From the NCBI GenBank assembly GCA_049971805.1, contig JBMFKU010000023.1, positions 1-18,791 on the forward strand: DNA of 18,791 nucleotides, given 5' to 3'. Under the pieces are notes generated by a model that saw only the letters and a program-made list of their open reading frames with translations, ran no database searches and was not told the origin of the DNA. Positions 253 through 16,678 of the stretch are shown one piece after another; position 1 is the stretch's first letter, and every line of letters begins with the position of its first letter. Origin of the DNA: Caldisphaera sp. (GTDB lineage Archaea; Thermoproteota; Thermoprotei_A; Sulfolobales; Acidilobaceae). A program made the translations under genes and the position numbers.

Positions 253-259
253 GATAATT

Positions 260-2215: not shown

Positions 2216-2227
2216 CAATAAATATTT

Positions 2228-2245
2228 ATATACTTTTTTGTATTT
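2228..2245. promoter_or_regulatory. Candidate operator ATATAC-N6-GTATTT (1 mismatch to RTAYAC-N6-GTRTAY), overlapping TATA-like TTTATATA (2225-2232)
   Basis: Seen in the intergenic gap before the GTG at 2267. The T6 spacer could also act as a terminator for the upstream gene. Confidence 0.4.
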
Positions 2246-2266
2246 ATGTAAAAGGGTGAATTTAAA

Positions 2267-3928
2267 GTGGAGAAGATAGTAAAAGGTTTTCCATCTACGG
2301 TCAATGATGATTATCAGTTAAATTTATGGAAAATAGTTGATTATATAGGTAAGGTACATCCAGACACAGAAGTTGTTTCCTATAGAAATTTGCAAGGAGG
2401 TAAAGTACATAGATTAAACTATGAATTGGTATCCAAAAGAGTAAAATCTATGGTAAATGCATTAGAAAAATTGGGCATAAATTCTGGAGATAGAATTGCA
2501 GTATTAGGTTGGAACGATCACAGATATTATGAGTCTTATTTTTCAATAACAGGAATTGGAGCTGTTATGTTGCAATTAAATCAGAGACTTCACTATACAG
2601 ACTTAGAATATATATTAGGACATTCTCAGGCAAAGGCATTGTTTGTAGATGATTCTTTATTGCAAATAGGTCAGCAAATAATTAAAGACGTTAAATTAAA
2701 CTTTGCCGTTATAATGGGTGATGATCCTTCTATAATGAATAACCTAAATTTAGGAATTAAGTTATATCACTATGAAGATCTTGTAAATGAAAATCCAAGT
2801 GTTAGAAAATTCCAAGAAATTGATGAAAAATCAGCAGCAACTGCTTGCTACACATCTGGGACAACTGGTAAGCCAAAAGGGGTCTATTATTCTCACAGAA
2901 GCTTAATTTTACACGCATGGGGAATTAATACGGTATTAAAAATGGATCCATCAGATACTTTTATTGCTATAGTTCCTCTATTTCATGCAAATGGATGGGG
3001 TGTTCATATAGCAGCATCAATGATGGGATCTAAACTAGTTTTTCCAGGAAGATATACTCCCGAAAGTCTAGCCAACATTTTAATTAACGAAGAAGTTACT
3101 GTTGGAGCTGCAGCACCTGCTATATTGATGCCATTATTAGAAGTTCTTAAAAAAACAAATCCAAAGCCATATTTTGAAAAATTAAGAATGGTATCTGGTG
3201 CAACAGAACCACCAATAGCCTTAATAAAGGGATTAAAGGATTTTGGAATCAATATAATACATGCCTATGGTGCAACAGAAACCAGTCCATTAGTTTTAGC
3301 TAATTTAAATAAAAAGAAAATTGAAAAAATGCCAGATGAATTTAGATTAGAAAATGCTCGTAAGCAGGGTTTACCTGTATTTGGTTTAGAAGTTAAAATT
3401 GTTGATCCAGCTGGAAATGAAATTCCATGGGATGGAAAAAGTATAGGTGAATTATTAATAAAAGGTCCATGGATTGCAAAGCAATATTATAATGATGAAA
3501 GGAGCAAAGAGCAATTTAATGAAGATTTTTGGTGGAAATCTGGTGATGCGGCTGTTGGAGATGAAAATGGCTATATAAAAATTGTAGATAGAATAAAGGA
3601 CTTAATAAAAAGTGGGGGTGAATGGATATCGAGCATAGATTTAGAAAATTATCTGATGGCCCATCCAGCTGTTTTAGAGGCATCTGTAGTTGGCGTTCCA
3701 CATCCCAAATGGGAGGAAAGGCCAATTGCACTTGTTGTTTTAAGACCTGAATTTAAAGAATATGATAGAAATAAGCTCGAAGAAGATATGAAAGAACATT
3801 TAATGAAAAAATTTGCTAAATGGCAAATCCCAGATAAGATATTTTTTGTAAATGAGATTCCGAAATCTAGCACAGGTAAGTTTGATAAAAAAACGATAAA
3901 AAATCAATATAAAGATATATTTACTTAA
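2267..3928 (+). CDS. Medium/long-chain fatty-acid--CoA ligase (AlkK/FadD-like, AMP-forming), 553 aa
   Basis: YTSGTTGKPKG P-loop, VPLFHANGWG, AYGATETSP, SGD, DRIKDLIKSGGEWISS, PHPKWEERP and the C-terminal PKSSTGK lysine. GTG start with SD GGGTGA at 2254-2259. Confidence 0.95.
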   Translation: MEKIVKGFPSTVNDDYQLNLWKIVDYIGKVHPDTEVVSYRNLQGGKVHRLNYELVSKRVKSMVNALEKLGINSGDRIAVLGWNDHRYYESYFSITGIGAVMLQLNQRLHYTDLEYILGHSQAKALFVDDSLLQIGQQIIKDVKLNFAVIMGDDPSIMNNLNLGIKLYHYEDLVNENPSVRKFQEIDEKSAATACYTSGTTGKPKGVYYSHRSLILHAWGINTVLKMDPSDTFIAIVPLFHANGWGVHIAASMMGSKLVFPGRYTPESLANILINEEVTVGAAAPAILMPLLEVLKKTNPKPYFEKLRMVSGATEPPIALIKGLKDFGINIIHAYGATETSPLVLANLNKKKIEKMPDEFRLENARKQGLPVFGLEVKIVDPAGNEIPWDGKSIGELLIKGPWIAKQYYNDERSKEQFNEDFWWKSGDAAVGDENGYIKIVDRIKDLIKSGGEWISSIDLENYLMAHPAVLEASVVGVPHPKWEERPIALVVLRPEFKEYDRNKLEEDMKEHLMKKFAKWQIPDKIFFVNEIPKSSTGKFDKKTIKNQYKDIFT

Positions 3929-3949
3929 ATAAGATTAACTTTTAATATT

Positions 3950-4864
3950 TTAACTCTCTTTACACGGATAATCAAATTTTTTTATATTTTCTGATATCAA
4001 ATTTACGGCTATATAGGCAAAATAATTATATTTAGCCTCAAAGCCTATCTCTTTTGCTTTGTTATATATTGCCAAATTAATGTAATCTAATTCAGTTTTT
4101 CTTCCATAATAAATATCCTGAAGTGTTGAAGAACAGTTATTATATGTTTCTCTAATAGTATCGATTAACATTTTTATAGGATCTTCCAATAAGGATATAT
4201 TTAGTTTTTCCGCAACATATGATGTTTCTTTGACAATATTAATTGCTAAATCAAATGCTTCTCCCTTATCAATTATCTTCCCATTTCTGTTCCATATCAG
4301 CACACTAAGAGGATTTATAGCTGAATTTATAGCTAGTTTCATCCATCTATAAGGCTCTATGTTTTCTACAATTTTTATTTTAAAATTATTGTTTACTCTT
4401 TCCCAATAATTTAGTTTATCCATGCAATTATTTTTACAACCTATAATTATAGATCTACCTCCATGAAATATAGATTTGCATTTATCTAAATACTGAAGTC
4501 CAGAATAAATAATCAAAATTGCAACATTTTTATAAATTTTTTCTAGTTCTTCCGCTGATCCTAATCCATTCTGCAAAGATATAGCTGTCTCAGCATCTAT
4601 ATTATTTTCCTTTAAATGCTCTATAGCATTTTTTACATCATAAGCCTTTGTAGCAAAAATTATTTGATCGAAATAATTATTTTTTAATGAATCATAGCCA
4701 CAAACCTCTAATTTACTTTTACCGATATTTATTACACTTATTTCTTTTAATTCACAATTCAATTGCCTTTTATCAACAACAGTAACATCGATTCCAATAT
4801 TACTTAATAACAAAGATATAAATGATCCAACAGATCCACAGCCACCTATAACTGCTATTTTCAT
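3950..4864 (-). CDS. panE: 2-dehydropantoate 2-reductase (ketopantoate reductase, ApbA/PanE family), 304 aa
   Basis: GGCGSVG nucleotide-binding loop, TKAYD, LQNGLG, catalytic WMKLAINSAINPL (Lys), SSTLQD and KTELDYIN (Glu). SD GGAGG upstream on the minus strand. Confidence 0.88.
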   Translation of the reverse strand: MKIAVIGGCGSVGSFISLLLSNIGIDVTVVDKRQLNCELKEISVINIGKSKLEVCGYDSLKNNYFDQIIFATKAYDVKNAIEHLKENNIDAETAISLQNGLGSAEELEKIYKNVAILIIYSGLQYLDKCKSIFHGGRSIIIGCKNNCMDKLNYWERVNNNFKIKIVENIEPYRWMKLAINSAINPLSVLIWNRNGKIIDKGEAFDLAINIVKETSYVAEKLNISLLEDPIKMLIDTIRETYNNCSSTLQDIYYGRKTELDYINLAIYNKAKEIGFEAKYNYFAYIAVNLISENIKKFDYPCKES

Positions 4865-4928
4865 TTTTAGCCTCCTATAAAAATGTGTTATTAAATTATT
4901 TAATTATTAAGCTTGCTATTGAAAATTA

Positions 4929-6914
4929 TCATTTCATTAAAGATTTAAGTTCTTGGATGGCCTTCTTAACCTCTTCTACTGATTCTGGATTTTCTACTAC
5001 TGGAGAAATTGTTGCTTTACCTTCTTTAGCAACGTCTCTAATAATTCTTCTCATTATCTTTCCGCTTCTTGTTCTAGGTAAATCTTTAATCTTTACTATT
5101 TGCTCTGGCTCAAAGGGCTTTCCAAGTTTTAATGAGATCATATTTTTCATTTCCGTGGTTTCCTTGTTGCCTATATCTTTACCTGGTTTTGGTATTGCAA
5201 AGCAAACTATAACTTCACCTTTAATAAAATCTGGATATCCGATACAAGCACTTTCGGCAACGGAATCATGGGAATTTATTATTGTTTCTATTTCTGCTGG
5301 ACCTACCCTTTTACCTGCAACCTTTATTACATCATCTGCTCTTCCTAAAATATACCACAATCCTTCCTCATCTATTAATGCGTAGTCTCCGTGGAACCAA
5401 ACTCCTTTAAAGGTACTCCAATATGTTTCTATATATCTTTTTGGATCCTTCCATAATCCTCTAGTCATACTTGGAGAAGGCTTAGTTGCGACCAGATATC
5501 CAGCTTTACCTTTTACTGGATTACCATAATCATCGTATACATCAACGCTCATACCCAATCCTGGACCCCAAAGAGTTGATGGTCTTAGTTTAACAACTGG
5601 ACTAGGCAATAAAAAGCAACCTAATATTTCCGTTCCTCCGCTTAGGTTTATTAATGGTCTCTTTTCTTTTCCAACGTCTCTCATTACCCAAAACCATGTA
5701 TCTTCATCTATTGGTTCGCCTGTATTCCCAAATGCTCTTAAAGAGTTTAAATCATGTCTTTCTACATTTTCATTACCTAATGCTTTTAACAATCTTGCTG
5801 CAGTTGCAGCAAAACCCAAATGCGTTATCTTGAACTTCTCTATTAAATCCCATACTTTATCTTTATTTGGATAATCTAAAGCTCCTTCTAATGAGAAATG
5901 AGTAGCTCCTAAAATTTGTGTTCCCACTACTTGCCACGGACCCATCATCCATCCGATATCTGTTATCCACCATAAAATATCATTATAGCCTTTCTCCCAT
6001 GCAGGCTTTATGTCTAGATTAAAGTAATGCTCCTTTGCTGGCTGCAAAATAGTTCCTGCATGACTTATTACGGCACCTTTTGGATTTCCTGTAGTTCCAC
6101 TTGTAAACATGAGCAATGCTGGATCTTCAGCATCTGTTTCTTCAGTTTCAAATTTAGAGCTTTTCCCTTTTATTGCATTATCAAACCAAACATCTCTCTT
6201 ATCGTTCCATTCTATATTTAACTTATCAAACCTTCTTGCAACCAATACAGTCAAATTAACATTCGAAAGACTAATGGCTTCATCGGCGTTTTTCTTCAAT
6301 TCTATAATTTTTCCTTTTCTATAATATCCGTCAGAAGTAATTAGTACTTTAGAGTTTGCTGACTTTATTCTTTCTGCTACAGCTTCTGGAGCAAATCCAC
6401 TAAATATAGGATTGGCTATTGCTCCAATTTTGAAAGCCGCATACATGCCAATTACTGTTTCAGGCATTAACGGAGCATATATAGAAACTACATCACCTTT
6501 CTTTACACCTATTTCTCTTAAATAATTAGATAGCTTATTCACATAATCGAGCATCTCAAAATATGTTAGTTTTACAGTTTTTCCATCTTCTCCATACCAA
6601 ATCATAGCTGTTTTATTCCCGTAACCTTTGTTTATTATTCTATCTAACGCATTATAAGCCACATTAATTTTACCATTAATATACCATTTTGTCCATTCTA
6701 TTCCTTGGCTAGTGTCATAAGTTTTTTCTGGCTTTCTGAACCAGTCTAATTCTAACCAATCTGGTAGATTGCCCCAAAACCAATTTAAATCATCTTGGCT
6801 TTTCTTAACTAAATCACTGTAAGAATTTATATTATATTTTTCCAAAAAAGAGGTTACATTGGCATTTCCTTTAATTTCTTCTGGGGGATACCACTCATAC
6901 ACCAATTTCTCCAC
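4929..6914 (-). CDS. AMP-forming acyl-CoA synthetase, Acs/acetoacetyl-CoA-synthetase-like, 661 aa
   Basis: Acs N-terminal FW...W...KWY..GKINVAYNALDR, IFSGF, SDGYYRKG, FTSGTTGNPKG, TDIGW, SGGTE, WFHGD, GRADDVIKVAGKR and LPRTRSGKIMRR. GTG start. Confidence 0.93.
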   Translation of the reverse strand: MEKLVYEWYPPEEIKGNANVTSFLEKYNINSYSDLVKKSQDDLNWFWGNLPDWLELDWFRKPEKTYDTSQGIEWTKWYINGKINVAYNALDRIINKGYGNKTAMIWYGEDGKTVKLTYFEMLDYVNKLSNYLREIGVKKGDVVSIYAPLMPETVIGMYAAFKIGAIANPIFSGFAPEAVAERIKSANSKVLITSDGYYRKGKIIELKKNADEAISLSNVNLTVLVARRFDKLNIEWNDKRDVWFDNAIKGKSSKFETEETDAEDPALLMFTSGTTGNPKGAVISHAGTILQPAKEHYFNLDIKPAWEKGYNDILWWITDIGWMMGPWQVVGTQILGATHFSLEGALDYPNKDKVWDLIEKFKITHLGFAATAARLLKALGNENVERHDLNSLRAFGNTGEPIDEDTWFWVMRDVGKEKRPLINLSGGTEILGCFLLPSPVVKLRPSTLWGPGLGMSVDVYDDYGNPVKGKAGYLVATKPSPSMTRGLWKDPKRYIETYWSTFKGVWFHGDYALIDEEGLWYILGRADDVIKVAGKRVGPAEIETIINSHDSVAESACIGYPDFIKGEVIVCFAIPKPGKDIGNKETTEMKNMISLKLGKPFEPEQIVKIKDLPRTRSGKIMRRIIRDVAKEGKATISPVVENPESVEEVKKAIQELKSLMK

Positions 6915-6995
6915 CTATCTTTGTACACTATTATGTATATTTATATGGCCAGAGTATTTATACAAGTATCATACAAAATAAATACGGGTGTGCTA
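6915..6995. promoter_or_regulatory. 81-bp divergent promoter region (acs-panE leftward; thiolase-like/DUF35 operon rightward)
   Basis: Head-to-head genes. TATTTATA occurs twice (6938-6945 and 6955-6962), reading TATAAATA on minus and TTTATA on plus. SD GGGTG at 6986-6990. Confidence 0.75.
6923..6940. promoter_or_regulatory. Candidate palindromic operator GTACAC-TATTAT-GTATAT
   Basis: Full match to RTAYAC-N6-GTRTAY. It lies 8 nt upstream of the GTG at 6914, and a counterpart occurs at 13233-13250. Confidence 0.55.
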
Positions 6996-8150
6996 ATGTC
7001 GCGAGTAGCTATAGTTGGAGCGGGTTGGTATGGTTTTAAACCCCAAACAATAGATATTTCCTTCCAAGATATGATGTTCGAATCATCATCAAGGGCATAT
7101 TCGAATTTAGACCCAAGAAAAGATATTGACGCATTTGTTGATTGCCAAGAAGATATGTGGGAAGGAATTGCTATAGCAGATGAATTTGCACCAGAACCTA
7201 TAGGAGGTGCTTTAAGACCTACTTATACCGTTTCTGGTGATGGATTACAAGGTATAGCCCATGCATTTATGTTAATAAAAACAGGTCACTTTAATGTAGT
7301 AGCAGTAGAATCTCATGGAAAACCGAGCGAAATAAAAACATTACAAGATATTTATAGATTTGCATTGGATCCTTTATATGTTAGGCCTTTAGATACAAAA
7401 AATCCATTGTTTTATGCTGGCCTAGATGCAATAGCATATATGAATAGGAATAACGTAAAAAGGGAGCATTTAGCAATGGTTGCGGTTAAAAATAAAACAA
7501 ATGGATTAAGGAATGAAAGGGCTTCCTTTTCAACAAGGATTGACTTAGATAATGTGTTATCTTATCCCTATTCTATATATCCAATGTCAGAGTACGAAAT
7601 TGCTCCATTTAGTGATGCTTCAATTACTTTTGTATTAGCAAGCGAAGAAGTTGCTAGAAAATATACGGATTTCCCTGTGTGGTTAAATGGTATTGGCTAT
7701 TCAACAGAAACCGGTACTGGGGTAACTGAATGGCATGAATGGGGACGAATGAAATCCATGAAAAACTCTGCATTAATGGCATATAAATTGGCTGGAATTG
7801 ATGGTAACCCTGATAAGTACTTTGATTTTGCCGAGGTAGAGGATAGATTTAGCTTTATGGAACTATTATCTTTGGAAGAATTAATGATTGCAAAGGAAGG
7901 TGAAGCCCATAAAATGTTAGAAAAAGGTGATTTTAACTTCAACGGTTATAAACCAGTTAATCCAAGTGGGGGTAGCCTATCAATGGGAGTACAGCTTGAG
8001 GCAACTGGATTGGCTAGATTGCTTGAGGCGTATTTGCAACTTAAAAATCAAGCTGGTTTACACCAATTAAAAGGTGTTTCTAAGGCTTTAGTTGCAAGTT
8101 GGAGGGGTGTTCCAACTTATACAAGCGCAGTCGCGCTTCTTTCTATATGA
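6996..8150 (+). CDS. Thiolase-fold (SCP2/non-decarboxylating condensing family) protein lacking catalytic residues; Ltp4-like, 384 aa
   Basis: RVAIVGAG, VAVKNK..G..N, APFSDAS..VLASEE and VNPSGGSL..G...ATGL. The nucleophile region reads TVSGDG (no Cys), the HDxF position reads EDRF and the GHP position reads GVQ. Start moved to ATG 6996 (SD GGGTG). Confidence 0.88.
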   Translation: MSRVAIVGAGWYGFKPQTIDISFQDMMFESSSRAYSNLDPRKDIDAFVDCQEDMWEGIAIADEFAPEPIGGALRPTYTVSGDGLQGIAHAFMLIKTGHFNVVAVESHGKPSEIKTLQDIYRFALDPLYVRPLDTKNPLFYAGLDAIAYMNRNNVKREHLAMVAVKNKTNGLRNERASFSTRIDLDNVLSYPYSIYPMSEYEIAPFSDASITFVLASEEVARKYTDFPVWLNGIGYSTETGTGVTEWHEWGRMKSMKNSALMAYKLAGIDGNPDKYFDFAEVEDRFSFMELLSLEELMIAKEGEAHKMLEKGDFNFNGYKPVNPSGGSLSMGVQLEATGLARLLEAYLQLKNQAGLHQLKGVSKALVASWRGVPTYTSAVALLSI

Positions 8151-8160
8151 GGTGAGATAT

Positions 8161-9339
8161 ATGAGATCTAATTTATTTGTAAAAGATAGGGTTGCAATTG
8201 TTAGTGCAGGATTGACTAGGTTTATGAGAAGAGCGCAGGAAACACCAAGGGAGTTGGCTTGGGAAGCTTCAAAAATGGCCTTGGATTCTGCTGGGCTAAC
8301 TTTAAAAGACATAGATTGCGTTGTAATGGGATCTGCACCTGATACATTCGATGGGATGCACTTCAAAGGAGAATATTTGGCTGATGGTTCTGGAGCCATA
8401 AATAAGCCAATGACTAGGGTTTATGTAGGAGGAGGGACAGGGGTTTTTGTTCCTGAAGCAGGTTACTGGCATGTAGCAAGTGGGCTATGTAAAAAAGTTT
8501 TAGTTGTAGCTGAAGAAAAAATGAGTCCAGCTCATCCCCATCCACAGTATGTATTTAAATATATCTGGGATCCGATACTGGAAAGACCATTAGATCCTAA
8601 CCTAATTTGGATTTTTGCAATGGAAATGAGAAGGTATATGGCAAAATGTGGAGCCAAGAAAGAAGACATTGCTTTGGTAAGTGTTAAAAATAAGAAAAAT
8701 GCATTAGATCATCCAGCAGCTTTAACTGCTGCAAATATAACAGTCGATGATGTTCTTAAAAGTGAAGTACTTGTATGGCCAGTTAACTTATTAGATATAT
8801 CGCCTGTAACCGATGGGGCTGCAGCATTAGTAATGGCATCTGAAGATGTTGCAAGGGGTATTACAGATTCTCCAGTGTGGGTTGATGGAATTGGGTTTAC
8901 ATTAGAGAATCAACATTGGTATAATAGAGAACTTGCTTTTCCGAGATATCTTAATTATGCAGCAAGAATGGCTTATAAGATGGCTGGAATTGAAGAACCC
9001 TGGAAAGAAATAGATGTAGCAGAACCTTATGATCCTTTCGATTATAAAGAATTGCATCACATTGAGGGATTAATGCTAGCAAGACCATGCGAAGCTTGGA
9101 AACTAGCCAAAGAAGGTTACTTTAATAGAGATGGAGAATTGCCAACTAGTCCAAGCGGTGGTCTATTAGGCGTTGGTAATCCAATTGCTGCCGCTGGAGT
9201 TATGAAAGTAGCAGAGCTATTCTGGCAACTAAGATATGAAGCCGGTAAAAGACAGGTTAAGAAACCCGTGCATAAAGCTGTTGCTAATGCTTGGGGTGAT
9301 TTAATGCAAGCAGCAACAGTTATTGTATTAAGTAATTAG
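8161..9339 (+). CDS. Thiolase-fold protein, Cys-less; Ltp3-like putative retro-aldolase subunit, 392 aa
   Basis: RVAIVSAG, IDCVVMGSAPDTFDG, RVYVGGGTG (Gly at the CxSG Cys position), EEKMS, SPVTDGAAALVMASE, AEPYDPF and SPSGGLLGVGNPIAAAG. ATG 8161 with SD GAGGTGA (8149-8155) overlapping the upstream stop. Confidence 0.9.
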   Translation: MRSNLFVKDRVAIVSAGLTRFMRRAQETPRELAWEASKMALDSAGLTLKDIDCVVMGSAPDTFDGMHFKGEYLADGSGAINKPMTRVYVGGGTGVFVPEAGYWHVASGLCKKVLVVAEEKMSPAHPHPQYVFKYIWDPILERPLDPNLIWIFAMEMRRYMAKCGAKKEDIALVSVKNKKNALDHPAALTAANITVDDVLKSEVLVWPVNLLDISPVTDGAAALVMASEDVARGITDSPVWVDGIGFTLENQHWYNRELAFPRYLNYAARMAYKMAGIEEPWKEIDVAEPYDPFDYKELHHIEGLMLARPCEAWKLAKEGYFNRDGELPTSPSGGLLGVGNPIAAAGVMKVAELFWQLRYEAGKRQVKKPVHKAVANAWGDLMQAATVIVLSN

Positions 9340-9352
9340 GGGGGTGTAAATC

Positions 9353-9883
9353 ATGAGTGTAAAGATAAATAAATTACCTGGAATTAAGCTAAAAGAAGAT
9401 GAAATGTATTCTTTGATCGGATTAGTAGAAGATAGGCCTCAGGCAAAATACGACTTTGCTGCAGGAACAACCATTTCTAAGTTCCTGATAGGATTAAAAG
9501 AAGGAAAGTTACTTGGAAGGAAATGTCCAAAATGTGGCAGAATATTTGTACCTCCTAGATCATACTGTGAATGGTGTCACGTGGCTACATCTGAATGGGT
9601 TGAGGTGCCTCAAACAGGTCAAATACATACTGCAACAATTACGTACATTTCGTCAAAGAGAGAGAAAATAGCAAAGCCTCTTGTTGTTGGAACAATAAAG
9701 CTCGATGTACCTGGATATAGAGATGACGAATATGAGTTTGCGGGGTTATTCCATAAAATATGTATTGATCCTGAAGATGTAATAAATGGAAAAGCAATTG
9801 GAATGAAAGTTAAAGTCAAATGGAAACCTAAGGAACAAAGGACAGGTAGCGTGTTAGATATAGAATGTTTTGAGCCTTATTAG
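9353..9883 (+). CDS. DUF35 family Zn-ribbon + OB-fold protein (ChsH2-C-like, acyl-CoA-binding thiolase partner), 176 aa
   Basis: GLKEGKLLGRKCPKCGRIFVPPRSYCEWC (intact CxxC-x10-CxxC), then OB-fold GQIHTAT...GMKVKVKW. SD GGGGGTG upstream. Confidence 0.92.
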   Translation: MSVKINKLPGIKLKEDEMYSLIGLVEDRPQAKYDFAAGTTISKFLIGLKEGKLLGRKCPKCGRIFVPPRSYCEWCHVATSEWVEVPQTGQIHTATITYISSKREKIAKPLVVGTIKLDVPGYRDDEYEFAGLFHKICIDPEDVINGKAIGMKVKVKWKPKEQRTGSVLDIECFEPY

Positions 9884-9893
9884 GGGTGATAAT

Positions 9894-10346
9894 ATGAGTT
9901 ATGATAAAAAGGGTAGATTGGAGGATTTAATAATTTTCCCAGGAGAGCAAGAAGTTGAGAAATATGTATATACGCCTGGAATTCAAGGAGTTGATTTTGC
10001 CAAAGGACTTATTGAAGGTAAAATTATGGGAATGAAATGCAAAGACAACAAAGTATATGTTCCACCAAAAGCCTTTTGTCCAGACTTTGAAGAAGGAAGC
10101 CTAATTGAAATAAACGACGATTGGATTGTATTATCATACACCGTTATCTATAGCGATATGTATGGAAACAAATTGGATAAACCCAAAGTAATTGGTGTAG
10201 TGAAGCCTAAAAACGGAGAAGGAGGAATCATTCACTTCTTAAACATATCAATAGAGAAGCTAAAAATTGGTATAACAGTAAAACCAGTTTTTAGACCAAA
10301 GAATGAGAGAAAGGGTAATATTAACGATATATTATATTTCGAATAA
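9894..10346 (+). CDS. Second DUF35 family protein with degenerate Zn ribbon, 150 aa
   Basis: GLIEGKIMGMKCKDNKVYVPPKAFCPDF has only 2 of 4 Cys. OB-fold SYTVIY...GIIH...LKIGITVKPVF. Start moved to ATG 9894 (SD GGGGTGA 9883-9889). Confidence 0.9.
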   Translation: MSYDKKGRLEDLIIFPGEQEVEKYVYTPGIQGVDFAKGLIEGKIMGMKCKDNKVYVPPKAFCPDFEEGSLIEINDDWIVLSYTVIYSDMYGNKLDKPKVIGVVKPKNGEGGIIHFLNISIEKLKIGITVKPVFRPKNERKGNINDILYFE

Positions 10347-10396: not shown

Positions 10397-13126
10397 GTGC
10401 CTATTGAAGTAGGTAAATTGGGGAATTCGAAATCTGTATCTAAGGGGGTTTTAGTTGGTCTTATAGTTTTTGTTGTTGTTATAGCTTTTTTAGGAATATA
10501 TCTTGGCCATTTAAGATATAATGAAGTTAAAAAAACTTTCTCGAGTGTTTCAACAACATCTACATCTATGATTTCAATACTAAGTCCAATTTCTCCTTCG
10601 ACAAAAACTATAGAATCCAATCAATCAATTAGTGTATATTTATCTGGACTTATTCAGGGAAAAGGAAATTATGCTGTAGTTTATGACGGAAATGGTTCCA
10701 TAATCAATACTACTTCTCAATATCCGAATATATTTTACAGATATCCTGGAAGCTATTTATTATATTATGAAACTTTCAATAATGGAATTTTAACCGGTTC
10801 TTCCTCACAAAACTTAATTGGTATATCAGTTTATCCAAATGTACCGGCCAATATTTCACAATATATAACTGTTCCAGTTATCACATTTAACATAACTAAA
10901 AACCCAACAGCACCAGTTTTCACAACAGGTGAAGAAGTTTATTTGCTGGCTGGTTTTCTACAGCCACCATCTGGTCAAAACATGACGATTTATGAGTATA
11001 TATGGAATTTTGGTAATGGAAAAACACAAACAGTTATGGCAAATCAATCAACTCTATTACCTGAAACAAATCCAGTTAGTGTAACTTACACCTCACCAGG
11101 TTTATATGCAGTTTCATTAACAATAACAACTAAAAATGTATCATCAGGCAAAACTTATAACTATACAACATATCAAACTGTTGCAATATCTGGTATTAAT
11201 CTAACATTTTCATTATTTAAAACTACATCTAATATACCAAATCCTGGAACTATTATAGTAGCTGAAAACGTACCTGGTGGACCATATAGCTTCGATCCAG
11301 ATATAGATTTAGAGGTAGTTGGAGAAGAAATTATAAGAAATATATTTTCAACCCTTGTAATCTATAATGGATCTAGCACGAACAAATTTTTACCAATGGC
11401 AGCAGAATATTTACCAACAGTTGGTAATTGGTCTCAAAGAGACATTTATGGAGGTATTTCACCAAACTATACAGTTTATACATTTAAGATTAGACCAGAT
11501 TTAAAAGCTGCTAATGGCGATCCTATCACAGCATACGATGTATGGTATTCTATCATTAGATCTTTGTTATGCTCAGGTGGAGTACCACCAACGCCAGGTT
11601 ATTCATTGGCTCAATATTTAATACACAATTATAGTGAATTTATGCCAATAGTTTCATCTCCAAATGACACTCAAGGATTTAATGAAATAATTAACTCAGT
11701 TCATTATAATAACCTAACAAACACAGTTACTTTTAATTTAACGACTAGTGCTAATCCACAATTGTTCTTTAGTATCTTAACAGAATCGGAAGGCTCCGTT
11801 TTAGACGCCAAATGGCTAGAGGAGATTGGAGATGGAATTAATTTTACTCCACAAGGTTTCTTTGAATACGAGCAAACGTGCAACGGAGGTAACTATAATA
11901 CTCAAGTGCAATGGGATCCAATGTCAACTGCACCATATATGATAAAAAGCTATACTCCTGGGCAAAGTATAATTTTAACTCCAAATCCATATTGGCCTAC
12001 TAACATACAAGATATACCAAAACCAAATGAAACTATTGTTATTTATTGGGTAAAGGATCCAAACACTGCATATTATATGTTTACAAGCGGTCAGGCTGAT
12101 ATCTTAACTAATATACCATCACAATACATACCTGAGATAGAAAACTATGAATCCCAGGGACAGGCAGTTATTTATATATATCCTACATATACAGAAAACT
12201 TCTTTGCGTTTACGTTAAATACGAACACAACAATGCTAAAGGATATAAATCCAAGTTATAATATACCAAGCTATTATTTTGCAAATCCATTAGTTAGAAA
12301 AGCTTTTGCATATGCCTTTAACTATACACAATACATAAATGATATTTTAGGCAATGAAAAATATCATATAAACTTTGGAAACAGCTATTGTGGGATATTA
12401 ATTCAAGGACTGGACTATTATTTCCCACCTAACTATTTTAACGGTTGCCCAACATTTAACTTGACATATGCTAAACAATTAATGGAAGAATCAGGTTTCT
12501 ATAATATAAGCGTTAACTTCCCAATAATAGTATCAAGCGGAGATACTGTTGATTTCACAGCAGCAGAAATGTGGGCACAGAACTTGCATGAAATGGATCC
12601 AAATATACAGGCAGTTCCATTATATATGCCTTTCGTCACAATGTATGCATACGACTCCATATATGGTCAAAATCCAATGCCTATATTTTATATGGGTTGG
12701 TCTCCCGGAACTCCAACTGCTTTAGAGTTTGTACAGGGAATGATAGAGCAAGGGGGACCCTATGCTGCACCTGATGGAGTTAATGCTACGTACTTAAGCT
12801 TACTAAGCCAGTATTTTGATACAAAAAATACATATTTGGCTAATTTGTTTGCTAACGAAAGCTATGAATATAGCCTATTAAATAATATTTCCATGAAGGC
12901 TATGGCCGCTGAAGTAGCAGGAAATATTACTGGAGCTTCTATCCTTTATAGAAAAGTTGATCAAATGGTAATTAATTTATATTTATATGTTTATACTGTT
13001 CAGCCAACGAATATGTGGATAGTTAAGCCCTATATAAATGGTTATAATAATCAAATATCATGGGAAGAAAACCCTCTTGCTAACGCAGCTATGGACAGCG
13101 TTTATTGGTGGTGGATTAAAGAATAA
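10397..13126 (+). CDS. Membrane-anchored ABC transporter solute-binding protein, family 5 (OppA/DppA-like), with N-terminal PKD-like domains, about 909 aa
   Basis: N-terminal hydrophobic helix (VLVGLIVFVVVIAFLGIYL), S/T-rich linker and PKD motif YIWNFGNG...YTSPGLYAVSLTI. SBP5 motifs SFDP, YTFKIRPDLK..NGDPITAYDVWYSI.R, STAPY and FANPLVRKAFAYAFNY. Start uncertain (GTG 10397 or TTG 10418). Confidence 0.88.
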   Translation: MPIEVGKLGNSKSVSKGVLVGLIVFVVVIAFLGIYLGHLRYNEVKKTFSSVSTTSTSMISILSPISPSTKTIESNQSISVYLSGLIQGKGNYAVVYDGNGSIINTTSQYPNIFYRYPGSYLLYYETFNNGILTGSSSQNLIGISVYPNVPANISQYITVPVITFNITKNPTAPVFTTGEEVYLLAGFLQPPSGQNMTIYEYIWNFGNGKTQTVMANQSTLLPETNPVSVTYTSPGLYAVSLTITTKNVSSGKTYNYTTYQTVAISGINLTFSLFKTTSNIPNPGTIIVAENVPGGPYSFDPDIDLEVVGEEIIRNIFSTLVIYNGSSTNKFLPMAAEYLPTVGNWSQRDIYGGISPNYTVYTFKIRPDLKAANGDPITAYDVWYSIIRSLLCSGGVPPTPGYSLAQYLIHNYSEFMPIVSSPNDTQGFNEIINSVHYNNLTNTVTFNLTTSANPQLFFSILTESEGSVLDAKWLEEIGDGINFTPQGFFEYEQTCNGGNYNTQVQWDPMSTAPYMIKSYTPGQSIILTPNPYWPTNIQDIPKPNETIVIYWVKDPNTAYYMFTSGQADILTNIPSQYIPEIENYESQGQAVIYIYPTYTENFFAFTLNTNTTMLKDINPSYNIPSYYFANPLVRKAFAYAFNYTQYINDILGNEKYHINFGNSYCGILIQGLDYYFPPNYFNGCPTFNLTYAKQLMEESGFYNISVNFPIIVSSGDTVDFTAAEMWAQNLHEMDPNIQAVPLYMPFVTMYAYDSIYGQNPMPIFYMGWSPGTPTALEFVQGMIEQGGPYAAPDGVNATYLSLLSQYFDTKNTYLANLFANESYEYSLLNNISMKAMAAEVAGNITGASILYRKVDQMVINLYLYVYTVQPTNMWIVKPYINGYNNQISWEENPLANAAMDSVYWWWIKE

Positions 13127-13262: not shown

Positions 13263-15158
13263 ATGGAAGGAGAATTGTTTTCTTATAAGAAGATAATGAA
13301 GATGAATAAGGAAGGGTTAGAAAATCCTGAAAAGTTTTGGAGGGATAGATTAAATTTAATTTCATGGTTTAAAGAGCCAGTAAAAATACTTGAAGGAACT
13401 CCACCTTATGAAAAATGGTTTGTTGGAGGGATATCTAATTTAGCATATAATGCTGTTGATAGGCACTTACCTAATGAAGCAAATAAGGTAATCTTTTATT
13501 GGATGGACGAGAAAGGAAATACCAAATCGGTAACCTACCAGGATCTATACTATGAAATGAACAGGGCAGCTCATGTTTTAAAAGAAATGGGTGTAAAACA
13601 TGGAGATACTGTATCTATGCTTATGTCAAGTTCTCCAGAAGCTGTTGCATTTGGTTTAGCGGTTCATAGATTAGGAGCCATAGCAGTAATTCATTATGTA
13701 GGTTTGACTGATGAAATTATTGCTACAAGATTTATCGATACAGGGTCTAAGTATGCTATAGTGTTTGCTAATACTATCAATGCAGGGTCTGAAATAAACA
13801 TAAAGAAATACTTTGACAATGTAGCAAATAAATTTAACCTACCAGTTGAAAAAGTTCTTGTAGTAAGTAGAGGAAGTTCTAATTTTGATTTAAAGCAAGG
13901 TAGAGATATGGTCTATGAAGACATAGCACCTAAAGGTAAGGTTTATGTTCCACCTGAACCTGTTGAAGCTAATGAAGTTGGAACGATCTATTATACAAGT
14001 GGTACTACTGGTAAACCTAAAGGTATTACTCATACCCAAATAGGCTATCCAATATCTTTAAACTGGACCTTTAAAGGATTATATGATTTAAGGCCCAATG
14101 ATGTATGGTGGACTGTTTCTGCTCTAGGTTGGCCTGTATGGCCCATGGCTAATCTATATACAGCTCCTGTGTCTGGAATAACTTCTGTGCTTTTCGAAGG
14201 CTATATAGGGGCGAGGCCTGACCTTTGGTCCAGAATAATAGAAAGATTCAATGTTTCATTGATTTGGTCATCAACTACATCTCTATACACTTTAAGGTCT
14301 TTAGGAGAAGAATCTGTAAAGTCTGGTGATACTTCATCTCTTAGAATAGTATTAAATACAGGTGAAACACTAAATGTCGGGTTTTTCAATTGGTTAAGAG
14401 AGCAGCTACCAGATGTATATATTGGGGATGCTTATTGGTTTACTGAGCATTTATCACCAGCAGCAGCTACCCCTTATGGTATAGGAGAAATACCATATAA
14501 ACCAGGTTCTACTGGAATAGAATTTCCATTAAGCAAAGTAGTTATAGTAGATGATGATGGAAACCCATTACCTCCAGGCAAAAAAGGCTACATAGTTTTG
14601 AAGCCATATTCTCCAGCTTTGGGTAAGATGTGGAACGATCCAAACCTAGAAAGATATAGCAAAGTATATACATCAAGATTCCCAGGATATGTGTTCTTTG
14701 GAGACTATGGATTTGTTGATTCTGATGGGTATCTATTTGTTTTAGGAAGAGCAGATGATGTATTAAAACCAGGCGGTGAAAGAGTAGGTACAATGGAAGT
14801 TGAAAGTTTAATCGGAAATCATAAAGCAGTTGCAGAAGTTGCTGCGACAAGCATGCCATCATTTGAAGGTAAAGGAGAAAAGCTTTTACTATTTGTAGTG
14901 CCAATAAAGGGCTACCAACCAGATGAAAAATTATCTAATGATCTCAAAGAATATGCCAAGAACTCAGGATTCATAATTGATTATATAGTATTTGTTAATA
15001 AACTACCTAAGACTAAAAGTGGTAAAATAATGAGAAGACTATTGAGAGCAACTGTTAGAAATGAACCGTTAGGAGATATTTCAACCCTCGATGATCCTGC
15101 TGCATTCGAAGATTTGAGAAGGAGATATGAAGAATTTAAGAAAGCAATGACAAGCTAG
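13263..15158 (+). CDS. AMP-forming acyl-CoA synthetase, divergent Acs/PrpE-like, 631 aa
   Basis: PEKFW...KWFVGG.SNLAYNAVDRH, YYTSGTTGKPKG, TGE, YWFTE, FGD, GRADDV and LPKTKSGKIMRRLLR...GDISTLDDP. Confidence 0.92.
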   Translation: MEGELFSYKKIMKMNKEGLENPEKFWRDRLNLISWFKEPVKILEGTPPYEKWFVGGISNLAYNAVDRHLPNEANKVIFYWMDEKGNTKSVTYQDLYYEMNRAAHVLKEMGVKHGDTVSMLMSSSPEAVAFGLAVHRLGAIAVIHYVGLTDEIIATRFIDTGSKYAIVFANTINAGSEINIKKYFDNVANKFNLPVEKVLVVSRGSSNFDLKQGRDMVYEDIAPKGKVYVPPEPVEANEVGTIYYTSGTTGKPKGITHTQIGYPISLNWTFKGLYDLRPNDVWWTVSALGWPVWPMANLYTAPVSGITSVLFEGYIGARPDLWSRIIERFNVSLIWSSTTSLYTLRSLGEESVKSGDTSSLRIVLNTGETLNVGFFNWLREQLPDVYIGDAYWFTEHLSPAAATPYGIGEIPYKPGSTGIEFPLSKVVIVDDDGNPLPPGKKGYIVLKPYSPALGKMWNDPNLERYSKVYTSRFPGYVFFGDYGFVDSDGYLFVLGRADDVLKPGGERVGTMEVESLIGNHKAVAEVAATSMPSFEGKGEKLLLFVVPIKGYQPDEKLSNDLKEYAKNSGFIIDYIVFVNKLPKTKSGKIMRRLLRATVRNEPLGDISTLDDPAAFEDLRRRYEEFKKAMTS

Positions 15159-15175
15159 AACGAGGTATCGAATAA

Positions 15176-16678
15176 ATGGCAAACAAATTTGAATTATTAG
15201 ATAAACCAATTCATTCTTTTTTTGATGAAATTTCAGAAAAAATACCAAATAATTGTGCATTAATTCAGCTTGAAAATTATCATTGCTATACATGGAAAGA
15301 TCTAAAGACATTATCAGATAAAACAGCTAATTATATAATTAACAATGGTTTTAAAAGTAAACAAATACTTTTTGCAGCTCACAATACTATAGATGCTGTT
15401 ATTGGATTACTTGGAATAATGAAAAGCAATAATATGGCTGTGCTAGTAGATCCATTAACAATTTCAGAAGACTTATTGCAAGAAATTGAAGGAAAAGATA
15501 TTAAAATGGCATTAGTTTCTTGGCAATTTTATGAAAGAGAAGCAATTACTATGAAAAAAGCAGGAATTAATGAAACAATAGTACTGGATGGTCAAGTAAA
15601 AGAAAACGAAGAAGGACCAAAAGTACATTATATAAAAGACATAATAAACCAAAAGACTTTTAATAATAATTTAGAGACAAACTTAAATAATACATCAATA
15701 ATAATGTATTATGCTGGTATAGCCGGAAGAACCATGCAAACCTATCATACATATAAAGGATTATCCTATGCTGTGCAAGCGTTATCAAAAACAATTTCAT
15801 TTGATTTTAAGCCAAATTCGCTTGTCGTCTCTCCAATAACTCACGTACTAGGTCTAGAAGTAAGCTTATTGGTTCCGCTCTTAAATGAAGGAAAAACTAT
15901 AATGGTTCAAAGATGGGATGCCGATTTGGTTAGTAATTCTATCAAGTATCTTGATATTAATTTTATTTCAGGAGCACCAATGATTTTTGATTCTTTAATA
16001 GAAAGTGTTGAAAAGAATAATTATGATTTTAAAAATACAATAAAGTTAGGTATATCTGCAGGAGCTCCGCTCAGGCCAGAAACACAAGATAAATTCTTTA
16101 AAATGTTTAATTCTCCATTAGTGCAGGCATATGGTATGACAGAATCTTGGGTTATTACATACCAACCAAAAGAACTATATCAAATTAAAAATACATTAGG
16201 TATACCAATTTATGGAGCAAAAATTAGAATTGCTGATCCAAACAATCCAACAATAGATGTTAAAAAAGGTGAAGCAGGTGAATTGTTGGTCAGCTGTCCA
16301 TGGTTAATGAAAGGATATGAAGATGAGAAGGAAACTAACAATGCGTTTTATCAAGAATGGCTTAAAACTGGAGATTTGGTTGCAATGGATAATAATCTGC
16401 TATATTTTAAAGGAGTCAAAAAAAGAATGCTCAAATATAAAGCATATCCTATCTTTCCAAAGGACTTGGAAAACATATTGCTCAAGCACGAAGCTGTAAA
16501 AAATGCATACATTTATGGAGAAAAGGATCCAGAAGTAGGTGATATTGTTACTGCAAAGGTTATATTAAAGGATGAATATAAAGGTAAAATTAAGGATGAA
16601 GATTTAATTAAGTTTGTTAACTCTAAAGTTGCTTTCTATAAAAAAATAAGGAAGATTTATTTCGTAGATAAATTTTAA
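15176..16678 (+). CDS. ANL-superfamily (acyl-CoA ligase-like) protein with degenerate ATP-binding motifs, 500 aa
   Basis: Keeps PITHVLG, SAGAPL, QAYGMTES, GEAGEL and WLKTGDL. The P-loop reads YYAGIAGRTMQ and the ORF ends at FVDKF, before the usual PKTxxGK lysine. SD GAGGT at 15162-15166; 17 nt from the upstream stop. Confidence 0.88.
   Translation: MANKFELLDKPIHSFFDEISEKIPNNCALIQLENYHCYTWKDLKTLSDKTANYIINNGFKSKQILFAAHNTIDAVIGLLGIMKSNNMAVLVDPLTISEDLLQEIEGKDIKMALVSWQFYEREAITMKKAGINETIVLDGQVKENEEGPKVHYIKDIINQKTFNNNLETNLNNTSIIMYYAGIAGRTMQTYHTYKGLSYAVQALSKTISFDFKPNSLVVSPITHVLGLEVSLLVPLLNEGKTIMVQRWDADLVSNSIKYLDINFISGAPMIFDSLIESVEKNNYDFKNTIKLGISAGAPLRPETQDKFFKMFNSPLVQAYGMTESWVITYQPKELYQIKNTLGIPIYGAKIRIADPNNPTIDVKKGEAGELLVSCPWLMKGYEDEKETNNAFYQEWLKTGDLVAMDNNLLYFKGVKKRMLKYKAYPIFPKDLENILLKHEAVKNAYIYGEKDPEVGDIVTAKVILKDEYKGKIKDEDLIKFVNSKVAFYKKIRKIYFVDKF

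Follow-up and report, generated by a model that had tools for sequence, protein, structure and literature searches.

Four adjacent genes in a genome of Caldisphaera sp. encode two thiolase-fold proteins (hereafter T1 and T2) that have both lost the thiolase catalytic residues, together with two DUF35 proteins (D1 and D2); the gene set is conserved in archaea and bacteria, and T2 bears a tyrosine of the type used by aldolases of this fold. We assign a probability of roughly one half to the reading that the four genes encode a single heteromeric enzyme, in which T2 would hold the only working site and would act on a 3-hydroxyacyl-CoA by retro-aldol (or aldol) chemistry that needs no Cys. The literature search recovered no archaeal characterisation of a Cys-less thiolase pair with DUF35 proteins, in line with a preliminary description of the locus.

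A conserved gene set without the thiolase residues

The window (the whole stretch of DNA analysed, 18,791 nt, contig JBMFKU010000023.1 of assembly GCA_049971805.1; genome 96.6% complete) carries the four genes on its + strand, at positions 6996-10346 and in the order T1, T2, D1, D2:

4929..6914, - strand: acyl-CoA synthetase gene, divergent neighbour outside the proposed complex; AcsA/acetoacetate-CoA-ligase-like, short-chain
6915..6995, + strand: leader 5' of T1, AT-rich intergenic with an SD-like GGGTGTG; common to the divergent acyl-CoA synthetase gene
6996..8150, + strand: T1, 384 aa, putative degenerate thiolase-fold partner subunit; NCBIfam PRK06066
8161..9339, + strand: T2, 392 aa, likely catalytic subunit; NCBIfam PRK06065
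9353..9883, + strand: D1, 176 aa, DUF35 protein with zinc ribbon and OB fold
9894..10346, + strand: D2, 150 aa, ATG start, second DUF35 protein

The gaps between the genes measure 10, 13 and 10 nt, and SD-like sites lie 4-9 nt 5' of each start (GGGTGTG for T1, GGTGA for T2, GGGGGTG for D1 and GGGTGA for D2), which bears out the tight coupling, with one SD per gene, noted in the preliminary description. The module was found in 58 of 301 Thermoproteota genomes, as a single copy per genome, and 67 of 80 related loci, some of them bacterial, have the order T1-T2-D-D (10 of the others were cut by contig ends and 3 differed). T1 scored above the cut-off of its NCBIfam family (PRK06066, 574 bits vs 516) and matched only Thiolase_C_1 in Pfam, while T2 scored 760 bits against a cut-off of 455 (PRK06065) and matched both Thiolase_N and Thiolase_C_1. 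NCBIfam now uses the neutral name ‘thiolase domain-containing protein’, rather than the mis-annotation as acetyl-CoA acetyltransferase that had been expected; the latter is presumably an older database name for such proteins.

By comparing both proteins with solved thiolases (7yvy, 6esq, 6hsj) and with the canonical thiolase of the same genome, we found that the nucleophile-Cys site of T2 is Gly91 (R86-VYVGGGTG), that its Y290-D-P-F aligns to the HDCF of SCP2-type thiolases, and that its G339-N340-P aligns to GHP, with Asn340 replacing the His (the two motifs being joined by a gap-free alignment of 81 residues). In T1 the nucleophile loop is shortened (TVSGDG, residues 78-83), EDRF (282-285) replaces HDCF and GVQ (331-333) replaces GHP. 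Neither family holds an invariant Cys column (maximum 61 of 79 sequences for T2 and 65 of 78 for T1); as the preliminary description had it, both proteins are devoid of the catalytic residues of thiolases, and no other Cys is conserved as a replacement. Considering that T2 is devoid of the nucleophilic Cys and of both catalytic His, neither an acyl-enzyme nor thiolysis should be possible. The phylogeny that had been proposed as a check placed T1, T2 and the Ltp3-/Ltp4-like groups apart from the Cys/HDCF/GHP thiolases, with 100/100 support for the split and a poorly resolved backbone.

At least 97% conservation was reached by 133 of the 392 positions of T2 (79 sequences; 132 invariant in 26 rows) and by 13 of the 384 positions of T1 (78 sequences; 26 invariant in 26 rows), which points to T2 as the likely catalytic subunit. 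Across archaea and bacterial metagenome-assembled genomes T2 identity amounts to 63-94%. Its Y290-D-P-F is invariant (26/26 rows), as are E155, Y159, H299 and H300, and the loops that form the thioester oxyanion site (G90-G94, G339-P341, W378-D380) are conserved.

Predicted assembly and proposed reaction

The AF2 model of T2 (pLDDT 82, pTM 0.86) has the SCP2-thiolase fold, with TM-scores of 0.80-0.89 to solved thiolases; in the fold search, ordinary thiolases outranked Ltp2 (rank 19) and Sal (rank 34). Co-folding of T1 with T2 yielded an ipSAE of 0.94 (best control 0.00), a mark that 58 of 80 solved complexes and 2 of 110 mismatched pairs also attained, and the runs had at least 93% of contacts in common, with partner pLDDT of at least 91. 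We stress that this pass may reflect likeness only, because thiolase dimers have already been solved. A natural fusion protein (P0006) unites a T2-like part with two DUF35 parts, in T2-D1-D2 order, and retains GGGTG, YDPF and GNP; together with the co-fold it renders the heteromer advanced in the preliminary description plausible.

We reason that the core would be a pseudo-symmetric T1-T2 heterodimer, in which T1 would act as a fast-evolving, non-catalytic partner completing the obligate dimer, and that D1 and D2 would be two distinct DUF35 proteins, one probably clamped on each thiolase-fold subunit (by analogy with DUF35 in solved thiolase and aldolase complexes). D1 matches zf-ChsH2 and OB_ChsH2_C and has all four zinc-binding Cys, kept in 71/71 orthologues. 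In D2, zf-ChsH2 is barely over its cut-off and OB_ChsH2_C under it, and the zinc ribbon retains only two of the four Cys, in columns conserved in 59/59 and 58/59 orthologues; the alignment with the solved SSO2064 (PDB 3irb), of which D2 is likely an orthologue, starts at D2 residue 1.

Most likely, T2 would act by retro-aldol (or aldol) chemistry, with a 3-hydroxyacyl-CoA of short or medium length as substrate. Tyr290 would abstract the beta-hydroxyl proton, the thioester enolate would be stabilised in the conserved oxyanion site by Asn340 and backbone amides, and the enolate might be reprotonated by another invariant residue, for which Glu155 is a candidate on account of its spacing relative to CtSal Gln161/Tyr165, not of sequence alignment; the reaction would yield acetyl- or propionyl-CoA and an aldehyde or ketone. 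A Tyr was experimentally shown to be the catalytic base in TcLtp2 (Y294-DHF) and CtSal (Y302-DCY), as described in PMC12329534, and Tyr290 does occupy that position, as had been proposed from its motif. The wider statement that Cys-less SCP2 homologues partnered with DUF35 are retro-aldolases holds for these two enzymes, but only for these two, and Sal still uses a Cys. Moreover, the second catalytic residue of both is missing from T2, which has Pro292 vs Cys304 (Sal) or His296 (Ltp2), and Asn340 vs Ltp2 Tyr344 (matched by equal +50 spacing). TbSLP, a protein of unclear function for which decarboxylase activity is reported, has a Tyr at the equivalent motif position (YDCF; PMC12329534), so that the Tyr alone is no proof of aldolase chemistry.

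Genomic context and other readings

The adjacent synthetase matches ACAS_N and AMP-binding in Pfam and lies below every NCBIfam cut-off (acetate-CoA ligase 585/657, acetoacetate-CoA ligase 423/639). Recurrent neighbours of the module are a short-chain acyl-CoA synthetase of the same protein cluster (25/80 loci) and an acyl-CoA dehydrogenase (19/80); in many lineages it is found amid unrelated genes (e.g., ThrRS, CdvC, CofD, nitroreductase), and the context thus says little on substrate. By hand comparison, a 3-hydroxyacyl-CoA dehydrogenase is present in 170 of 301 Thermoproteota genomes, including all 58 with the module. At E<=1e-20, a carboxyltransferase was not detected in 36 of these 58 (genomes with one, by family: f1 0/6, f17 0/20, f25 0/10), the Caldisphaera genome included, which had zero Carboxyl_trans matches and no HMG-CoA lyase above cut-off.

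Some other Cys-independent enolate chemistry, such as decarboxylation of malonyl- or methylmalonyl-CoA or Claisen-type condensation or cleavage that proceeds directly, with no acyl-enzyme, would agree with the kept oxyanion loops of T2, with the decarboxylation mentioned for TbSLP and its shared motif Tyr, and with an acetate/acetoacetate-CoA-ligase-like neighbour. We consider it unlikely, given that malonyl-CoA made by carboxylation is no evident substrate where carboxyltransferase goes undetected (in the 36 genomes, this one among them), and that the motif Cys kept by TbSLP and Sal is a Pro in T2. To our knowledge there is also no case of Cys-free thiolysis, which counts against such chemistry.

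The nearest family of the module is an actinobacterial trio (PRK08313, PRK07937 and a double-DUF35 protein), which we take to be of the Ltp3/Ltp4/Rv3521 type. It is rather improbable that the module is a functional orthologue of Ltp3/Ltp4, performing an HMG-CoA-lyase-like cleavage after carboxylation and hydration of a beta-branched acyl-CoA (e.g., in the breakdown of leucine or isoprenoids). In NCBIfam, the families of T2 and of the large trio subunit are each other's nearest (PRK08313 being the best foreign family of T2, with 264 bits, and T2's own PRK06065 that of a PRK08313 member, with 225 bits); the large subunit of the trio shares with T2 the Gly at the Cys site, Y-x-P-F and N-P, the small one (PRK07937) shares with T1 the shortened ‘DG’ nucleophile loop, and the adjacent synthetase is acetoacetate-CoA-ligase-like, though below cut-off. 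According to a review (PMC6678751), Ltp3 and Ltp4 would form a heteromeric aldol-lyase whose step follows C28 carboxylation and hydration. Nevertheless, the undetected carboxyltransferase argues against a carboxylation-dependent reaction of this type, and the direct equation of T1 with Ltp4 and of T2 with Ltp3, made in the preliminary description, was not supported: the scores fall far under the family cut-offs (T1 97.5 vs 419 bits for PRK07937; T2 264 vs 514 for PRK08313), T2 is only 33-35% identical to Ltp3-type proteins, and, on the poorly resolved backbone, AU tests rejected neither orthology nor independent duplication.

A non-enzymatic assembly that binds or channels acyl-CoA, or that serves as a scaffold recruiting other enzymes, would account for the disappearance of every classical catalytic residue. 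In S. acidocaldarius the DUF35 protein Saci_1120 is described as recruiting a reductase and a dehydratase in the assembly of the fatty-acid-synthase complex (bioRxiv 2024.07.05.601840). The Caldisphaera genome also holds a Cys-less thiolase-like gene and a DUF35 gene directly 3' of HMG-CoA synthase, whose products may be a scaffold. For T2 we find such a role doubtful, as its 132-133 near-invariant residues (Tyr290, Asp291, Asn340, Asp380 and the polar residues named above included) and its identity of at least 63% between archaea and bacteria speak for catalysis. Finally, an ordinary thiolase with a differently placed nucleophile would fit the intact fold but is scarcely credible, since no Cys is invariant in either family, neither catalytic His is kept, nor is the motif Cys, the split from Cys-bearing relatives has full support, and the genome already encodes a classical thiolase as well as a canonical one of SCP2 type, which has a DUF35 partner.

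Comparison with known systems

TbSLP (Trypanosoma brucei, PDB 5AB4-5AB7) resembles T2 in its Cys-less SCP2-thiolase fold and motif Tyr, but it is eukaryotic, keeps the motif Cys and is only weakly similar (45 bits); no DUF35 partner for it was found in the literature. In thiolase-DUF35 complexes such as 6esq, a thiolase-fold dimer is clamped by a stand-alone DUF35 protein whose gene lies downstream in the same operon; one of the best structural matches of T2 is 6esq (TM 0.89), and D1 and D2 both match its DUF35 chain. These complexes are, however, active homodimeric thiolases that keep Cys/HDCF/GHP and have a single DUF35 type.

TcLtp2-ChsH2(DUF35) (PDB 6OK1) and CtSal-Shy(DUF35) (PDB 9MYR) share with T2 the SCP2-thiolase fold without nucleophilic Cys and the Tyr that opens the HDCF-equivalent motif, and with the module a DUF35 partner, which there flanks the central dimer. 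They differ from T1-T2 in being homodimers, in having their DUF35 as a domain of a MaoC hydratase (no such hydratase was found beside the module), and in their second catalytic residue (Tyr344 or Cys304), replaced in T2 by Asn340 and Pro292. Sequence similarity to 6ok1 is weak (74 bits for T2, 37.5 for T1), and their substrates are steroids, not expected for a hot-spring archaeon.

For the actinobacterial trio no biochemical characterisation was found in the literature. Its gene order is reversed (DUF35 first), its DUF35 modules are fused in one 313-aa protein, and its small subunit is shorter by about 35 aa. T1 resembles the Ltp4 type no more closely than it does the Ltp3 type. The trio adjoins an EchA19-like crotonase in sterol-type clusters, and its pathway reportedly requires carboxylation, whereas most module-holding archaea are without a detectable carboxyltransferase. 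A PRK07937/PRK08313 pair of Streptomyces shows the Ltp3/Ltp4 hallmarks listed in the preliminary description; its identity is 54-70% to the pair that, in other Actinomycetes, lies 4-5 kb away from EchA19 equivalogs. Like the module, the trio pairs a well-conserved thiolase-fold subunit with a degenerate one and adds two DUF35 modules.

A Cys-less thiolase-fold pair

The source genome (1.52 Mb, 96.6% complete, represented here by contig C23) has its closest public relatives among the Caldisphaera and Acidilobaceae MAGs, in which T2 identity reaches 92-94%. The module consists of two thiolase-fold genes (T1 and T2) followed by two DUF35 genes (D1 and D2) and is set among genes of acyl-CoA turnover.

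Genes of the module and of its acyl-CoA surroundings
6996-8150, + strand: T1, thiolase-fold protein, 384 aa
8161-9339, + strand: T2, thiolase-fold protein, 392 aa
9353-9883, + strand: D1, DUF35 protein, 176 aa
9894-10346, + strand: D2, DUF35 protein, 150 aa
236-2215: 3-hydroxyacyl-CoA dehydrogenase/enoyl-CoA hydratase fusion (archaeal domain order, dehydrogenase first)
within 236-6914 and 13263-16678: four genes for AMP-forming acyl-CoA synthetases (different subfamilies)

The intergenic gaps are 10, 13 and 10 nt, in agreement with the preliminary description. A mechanical ORF list began T1, T2 and D2 at upstream TTG codons; judged from sequence features, the ATG starts are the better choice, since with them the NCBIfam models are matched over their full length, the alignment of D2 to the solved SSO2064 begins at residue 1, and a GGTGA-type Shine-Dalgarno precedes each ATG. 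A scan for sigma-70 promoters and terminators (a tool unsuited to archaea) recovered no more sites than in shuffled sequences. A hairpin resembling a terminator, with a T-rich run behind it (8123-8138), falls within the final codons of T1 and immediately ahead of the ribosome-binding site of T2; it may mean nothing, as 2 such sites were found against 2.3 expected by chance.

Over their full length, T2 and T1 are members of the NCBIfam equivalogs PRK06065 (760.1 bits; cut-off 455) and PRK06066 (574 bits; cut-off 516), respectively, both with the product name 'thiolase domain-containing protein', and Pfam recognizes both thiolase domains in T2 and the C-terminal one only in T1. The top solved relatives of the two proteins are all SCP2-type (7yvy, a Pyrococcus furiosus thiolase; 4yzo, a Sulfolobus tokodaii thiolase-like protein; 6esq, a Methanothermococcus thiolase), and the steroid side-chain retro-aldolase Ltp2 (6ok1) is matched at 74 bits by T2 and at 37.5 bits by T1. 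The AlphaFold2 model of T2 (26-row alignment; pLDDT 82, pTM 0.86) adopts the thiolase fold (TM 0.80-0.89 to solved SCP2-type thiolases), while T1 was modelled at pLDDT 91-93 in the co-fold with T2. Given that Ltp2 and Sal (a second retro-aldolase of steroid side chains) rank only 19 and 34 in the T2 fold search, the fold alone cannot tell a thiolase from an aldolase.

The catalytic sites were read by HMMER alignment to 7yvy, 6esq and the zebrafish SCP2-thiolase, as well as by MAFFT alignment with the genome's own canonical thiolase (contig C6: AACSSG, HDCF, GHP). In T2 the nucleophile loop reads V-G-G91-G-T-G, with Gly91 where the CxS loop of thiolases has its Cys; Y290-D-P-F occupies the HDCF site and G-N340-P the GHP site (the 81 residues from YDPF to GNP being gapless in the alignment). 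The T1 loop (SGDG) is 3 residues shorter, with EDRF at the HDCF site and GVQ at the GHP site. Neither protein has the Cys, the HDCF motif or the GHP His of SCP2-type thiolases (EC 2.3.1.9/2.3.1.16), and the loss of catalytic residues that the preliminary description had claimed for both proved right in every detail checkable by alignments and Cys-column counts. A substitute Cys, which would have spoken against that description, is excluded by the absence of any invariant Cys column (the best-conserved one holds Cys in 61 of 79 T2 and 65 of 78 T1 sequences). The module cannot be a thiolase, and it is a real and strongly conserved feature.

Elsewhere in the same genome, a canonical Cys thiolase is found with a DUF35 partner (C6:30707-32465). 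On another contig (C4:67228-69858) a thiolase-like gene comes directly after an archaeal HMG-CoA synthase gene (TIGR00748, 469 bits), and a DUF35 gene comes next; as the thiolase-like protein has Glu at the nucleophile position (IEAGEASG; HDSF and GHP kept), the 'thiolase' of this mevalonate-type operon is here also devoid of the catalytic Cys.

In a search of 1.84 billion proteins, Cys-less forms dominate the 106 full-length representatives closest to T2. A FastTree phylogeny of 136 rows recovered four groups (support in brackets): the T2 family (98), Ltp3-like proteins bearing Y-x-P/A-F and N-P (98), the Cys/HDCF/GHP thiolases (88), and a partner group (85) made up of the T1 family (99) and Ltp4-like proteins (97). 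With IQ-TREE (LG+G4, 52 chosen rows) the Cys/HDCF/GHP group stood apart from all others at 100/100, the backbone beyond this split not being resolved; thus, the grouping of T1 or T2 with Cys-thiolases that would have counted against the preliminary description is absent. AU tests rejected none of the unions of T2 family with Ltp3-like (delta lnL 5.3, p 0.389), T1 family with Ltp4-like (delta lnL 2.6, p 0.437) and T1 family with T2 family (delta lnL 18.2, p 0.286), and are weakened by the fact that the groups were named after the first tree was seen.

Unequal subunits and their predicted assembly

Relatives were collected by scanning one genome per species, which yielded 267 stretches encoding them, of which the best 80 were kept. 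The order T1-T2-DUF35-DUF35 is present in 67 of these best 80 loci; from the remaining 13, ten end at a contig edge and three differ (L035, L049, L068). MAGs labelled WOR-3, Thermodesulfobacteriota, Deltaproteobacteria and Geothermincolales are included in the same best 80 of 267. Identity to the window proteins decreases from T2 (63-94%) through T1 (38-84%) and D1 (34-90%) to D2 (28-75%). In T2, 133 of 392 positions are at least 97% conserved (79 sequences) and 132 are invariant (26-row alignment), as against 13 of 384 (78 sequences) and 26 (26-row alignment) in T1. The T2 invariants comprise the whole Y290-D-P-F-x-Y-K-E-L-H299-H300 stretch, G337-V-G-N340-P-I-A-A-A-G, G90-G91-x-T93-G94, E155, R158, Y159, K176-N-K and W378-G-D-L-M-Q. 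On this sequence-level asymmetry, we read T2 as the probable catalytic subunit and T1 as its putative structural partner.

The DUF35 proteins show a parallel asymmetry. Pfam assigns a ChsH2-type zinc ribbon and OB fold to both (for D2 the ribbon match is just over and the OB match under the cut-off). All four zinc-binding Cys of D1 are kept in 71 of 71 sequences, while D2 has just two of the four Cys conserved in nearly all of 59 orthologues, the solved orthologue SSO2064 (3irb), with four Cys, being the exception.

Co-folding of T2 and T1 (26-row alignment each) gave an ipSAE of 0.94 (runs 0.95, 0.94, 0.94), compared with 0.00 for the best of three controls; the same mark was attained in 58 of the 80 solved complexes and in 2 of the 110 mismatched pairs. 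At least 93% of contacts were common to the runs (partner pLDDT at least 91). This pass may show mere likeness, since thiolase dimers have already been solved, and as a model the co-fold cannot separate a heterodimer from two homodimers. The 61-residue modelled interface holds 7 of the 26 T1 invariants (about 4 expected), an excess on which we put no weight.

In the T2 monomer model pLDDT falls below 50 only at the N-terminus and at residues 60-68, 124-142 and 337-340, and these loops are mostly invariant (P60-D61-F63-D64-G65; P126-H127-Q129-F132-I135-D137; G337-N340). Residues 60-68 and 131-138 form part of the modelled T1 interface; such loops may, going by the models, become ordered perhaps only in the complex or with substrate.

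A natural fusion of 731 aa (P0006) joins a T2-like part (55% identical; GGGTG, YDPF and GNP kept) to a D1-like and then a D2-like module, and provides independent support for T2-D1-D2 contact, although this fusion and P0020 (an N-truncated form of the same type) are predicted proteins only, in which a lost stop codon is possible.

Acyl-CoA context and alternative roles

With four synthetases and the dehydrogenase/hydratase fusion surrounding the module, we regard the window, which also has a PanE-like reductase, as an acyl-CoA metabolism island. In the window no crotonase gene adjoins the module; the closest hydratase domain is that of the fusion at 236-2215. Among the best 80 of 267 loci, only two neighbour families recur: an AcsA/acetoacetate-CoA-ligase-like synthetase (25 of 80; under all NCBIfam cut-offs) and a short-chain-type acyl-CoA dehydrogenase (19 of 80). 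Other lineages, bacteria included, have unrelated neighbours (ThrRS, CdvC, CofD, nitroreductase and others).

Two other genes of the window deserve mention. The gene at 10397-13126, which separates the module from the following synthetase gene, encodes a family-5 solute-binding protein of 909 aa with a PKD domain; the GC skew flattens across it, unlike in the flanking + strand genes. Directly after an M20 peptidase gene, a 126-aa protein (18229-18609) carries a 'putative phage metallopeptidase' domain (PF18894) and has weak relatives in three related loci (L041, L048, L056).

Above its cut-off, PRK06065 was detected in 58 of the 301 Thermoproteota genomes sampled, always as a single copy. By hand comparison of these 301 (where relatedness makes genomes non-independent and a gene missing from a MAG may not be truly absent), all 58 module genomes fall among the 170 with a 3HCDH_N match and only 22 among the 138 with a carboxyltransferase match (36 without one), with three genome families (f1, f17, f25) contributing 24 module genomes and zero carboxyltransferases. 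This pattern ties the module to 3-hydroxyacyl-CoA metabolism, and the carboxyltransferase absence argues against any role needing acyl-CoA carboxylation.

One alternative is drawn from actinobacteria. A tblastn search against plasmids recovered a Streptomyces trio whose neighbours are a crotonase and an acyl-CoA synthetase. Its members are a double-DUF35 protein (313 aa), a PRK07937 'lipid-transfer protein' (350 aa, 573 bits) and a PRK08313 protein (388 aa, 717 bits). We take the PRK08313/PRK07937 pair to be Ltp3/Ltp4, from the mycobacterial gene order, together with the NCBIfam product name and EchA19 as landmark. EchA19 equivalogs were used as this landmark because a search with the Streptomyces Ltp3-like protein matched Streptomyces loci only, and the Mycobacterium branderi and Rhodococcus plasmid records held no PRK07937 member above cut-off. 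Out of five EchA19-equivalog genomes (Actinomycetes), three have the trio at 4-5 kb from EchA19, the fourth has only the double-DUF35 gene within the fetched region, and in the fifth no trio was found; the large subunits near EchA19 are 67-70% identical to the Streptomyces PRK08313 protein. A third architecture is present on a Rhodococcus plasmid (L081, 5102-7700), where a strongly degenerate partner (304 aa), a Y-A-P-F/N-P subunit (392 aa) and a single stand-alone DUF35 share a cluster with a pair of MaoC hydratases, a CoA-transferase and acyl-CoA dehydrogenases.

T2 and the PRK08313 large subunits both have Gly at the Cys site, Y-x-P-F and N-P, while T1 and the PRK07937 small subunits both have a shortened DG loop. 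Alignment bore out motifs listed in the preliminary description, with IDxVVxGxAPDxFxG and LADxxGAxxKPxxRV common to T2 and PRK08313; T1 and PRK07937 have GKxS and LDPxY in common. The family scores fall short of membership (T2 264.2 against the PRK08313 cut-off of 514; T1 97.5 against the PRK07937 cut-off of 419). PRK08313 and PRK06065 are reciprocal best foreign families (264 and 225 bits), and in BLAST comparisons T1 matches the Ltp3 type (111-113 bits) at least as well as the Ltp4 type (68-75 bits). By these comparisons, the relationship is a family resemblance with shared derived motifs, short of orthology. Of the proposed Ltp3/Ltp4 analogy, the architecture and motifs stand, family membership does not, and the pathway logic probably does not either: the available part of a review (PMC6678751) describes a carboxylate-hydrate-cleave scheme, and a carboxylase context is missing from the same 36 of 58 module genomes, among them the source genome (no Carboxyl_trans match, no HMG-CoA lyase above cut-off). 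The same absence pattern disfavours a role as malonyl-CoA decarboxylase. A module replacing HMG-CoA lyase after methylcrotonyl-CoA carboxylase was dropped as lead reading, the carboxyltransferase not having been found.

A putative Cys-free lyase among thiolase-fold aldolases

The best-supported mechanism is that of a heteromeric, Cys-free putative lyase of the retro-aldolase type, with T2 as catalytic subunit, to which we assign a probability of about 0.5. The more specific proposal, in which a carboxylation-independent Cys-free C-C lyase bypasses the beta-methyl block with a new catalytic pair, is unlikely to hold. Under it, the hosts would be heat-loving archaea and some anaerobic bacteria without acyl-CoA carboxylases, and the substrates would be 3-hydroxyacyl-CoAs not oxidisable to the 3-keto form (e.g., leucine-derived 3-hydroxy-3-methylbutyryl-CoA, or the 3-methyl-branched isoprenoid acids of archaeal lipids), cleaved to a ketone and acetyl-CoA. 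Catalysis would fall to Tyr290 and a carboxylate such as Glu155, a pair unseen in known thiolase-fold aldolases. If true, this would be a new way round the beta-methyl block in beta-oxidation. The general reading of the module as a conserved four-subunit relative of thiolase-fold aldolases would fill a missing step of archaeal acyl-CoA metabolism and would correct a family easily misread as a redundant thiolase in metabolic reconstructions. As the model archaeon Sulfolobus acidocaldarius (our control genome) has PRK06065, the question is directly open to genetics and biochemistry.

In agreement with the preliminary description, which knew of no characterisation in archaea, the literature on DUF35, thiolase, aldolase and SSO2061-SSO2064 contained no study of the module (subscription journals and supplements lay outside the search), and nothing relevant was found on Sulfolobus leucine breakdown. 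The available part of the SSO2064 structure paper proposes acyl-CoA binding from operon context, and that of preprint 2024.07.05.601840 characterises a different pair, the active thiolase/DUF35 Saci_1121/1120, with no mention there of the Cys-less one.

In the available part of PMC12329534, TcLtp2 has Tyr294 (Y294-DHF) as its catalytic base and Tyr344 as its acid, Tyr302 and Cys304 of Y302-DCY are the catalytic pair of CtSal, and the same motif site reads HDCF in SCP2 thiolases and YDCF in TbSLP (the Trypanosoma brucei SCP2-thiolase-like protein). T2 resembles these aldolases in having Tyr290 at the first HDCF-equivalent position (invariant in 26 of 26 rows), its equivalence to Ltp2 Tyr294 resting on both aligning to the His of HDCF; T1 has Glu282 there. 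T2 differs from the two aldolases in having Pro292 at the position of Sal Cys304 and Ltp2 His296. Asn340 stands at Tyr +50, the spacing of Ltp2 Tyr344 and Sal Gln352, an equivalence taken from the numbering. Thus, by the residue assignments in that part of PMC12329534, T2 has the aldolase-type Tyr but neither known second residue. Candidates for a bound DUF35 partner, as in the Ltp2/Sal type, are the two coupled downstream DUF35 genes of 67 of the best 80 of 267 loci, and a natural T2-D1-D2 fusion exists. To our knowledge, the breakdown of steroid side chains in bacteria is the only setting in which thiolase-fold aldolases are known; a conserved four-subunit relative, in a fifth of the sampled Thermoproteota and scattered bacteria, would show thiolase-fold aldolase chemistry to be old and general.
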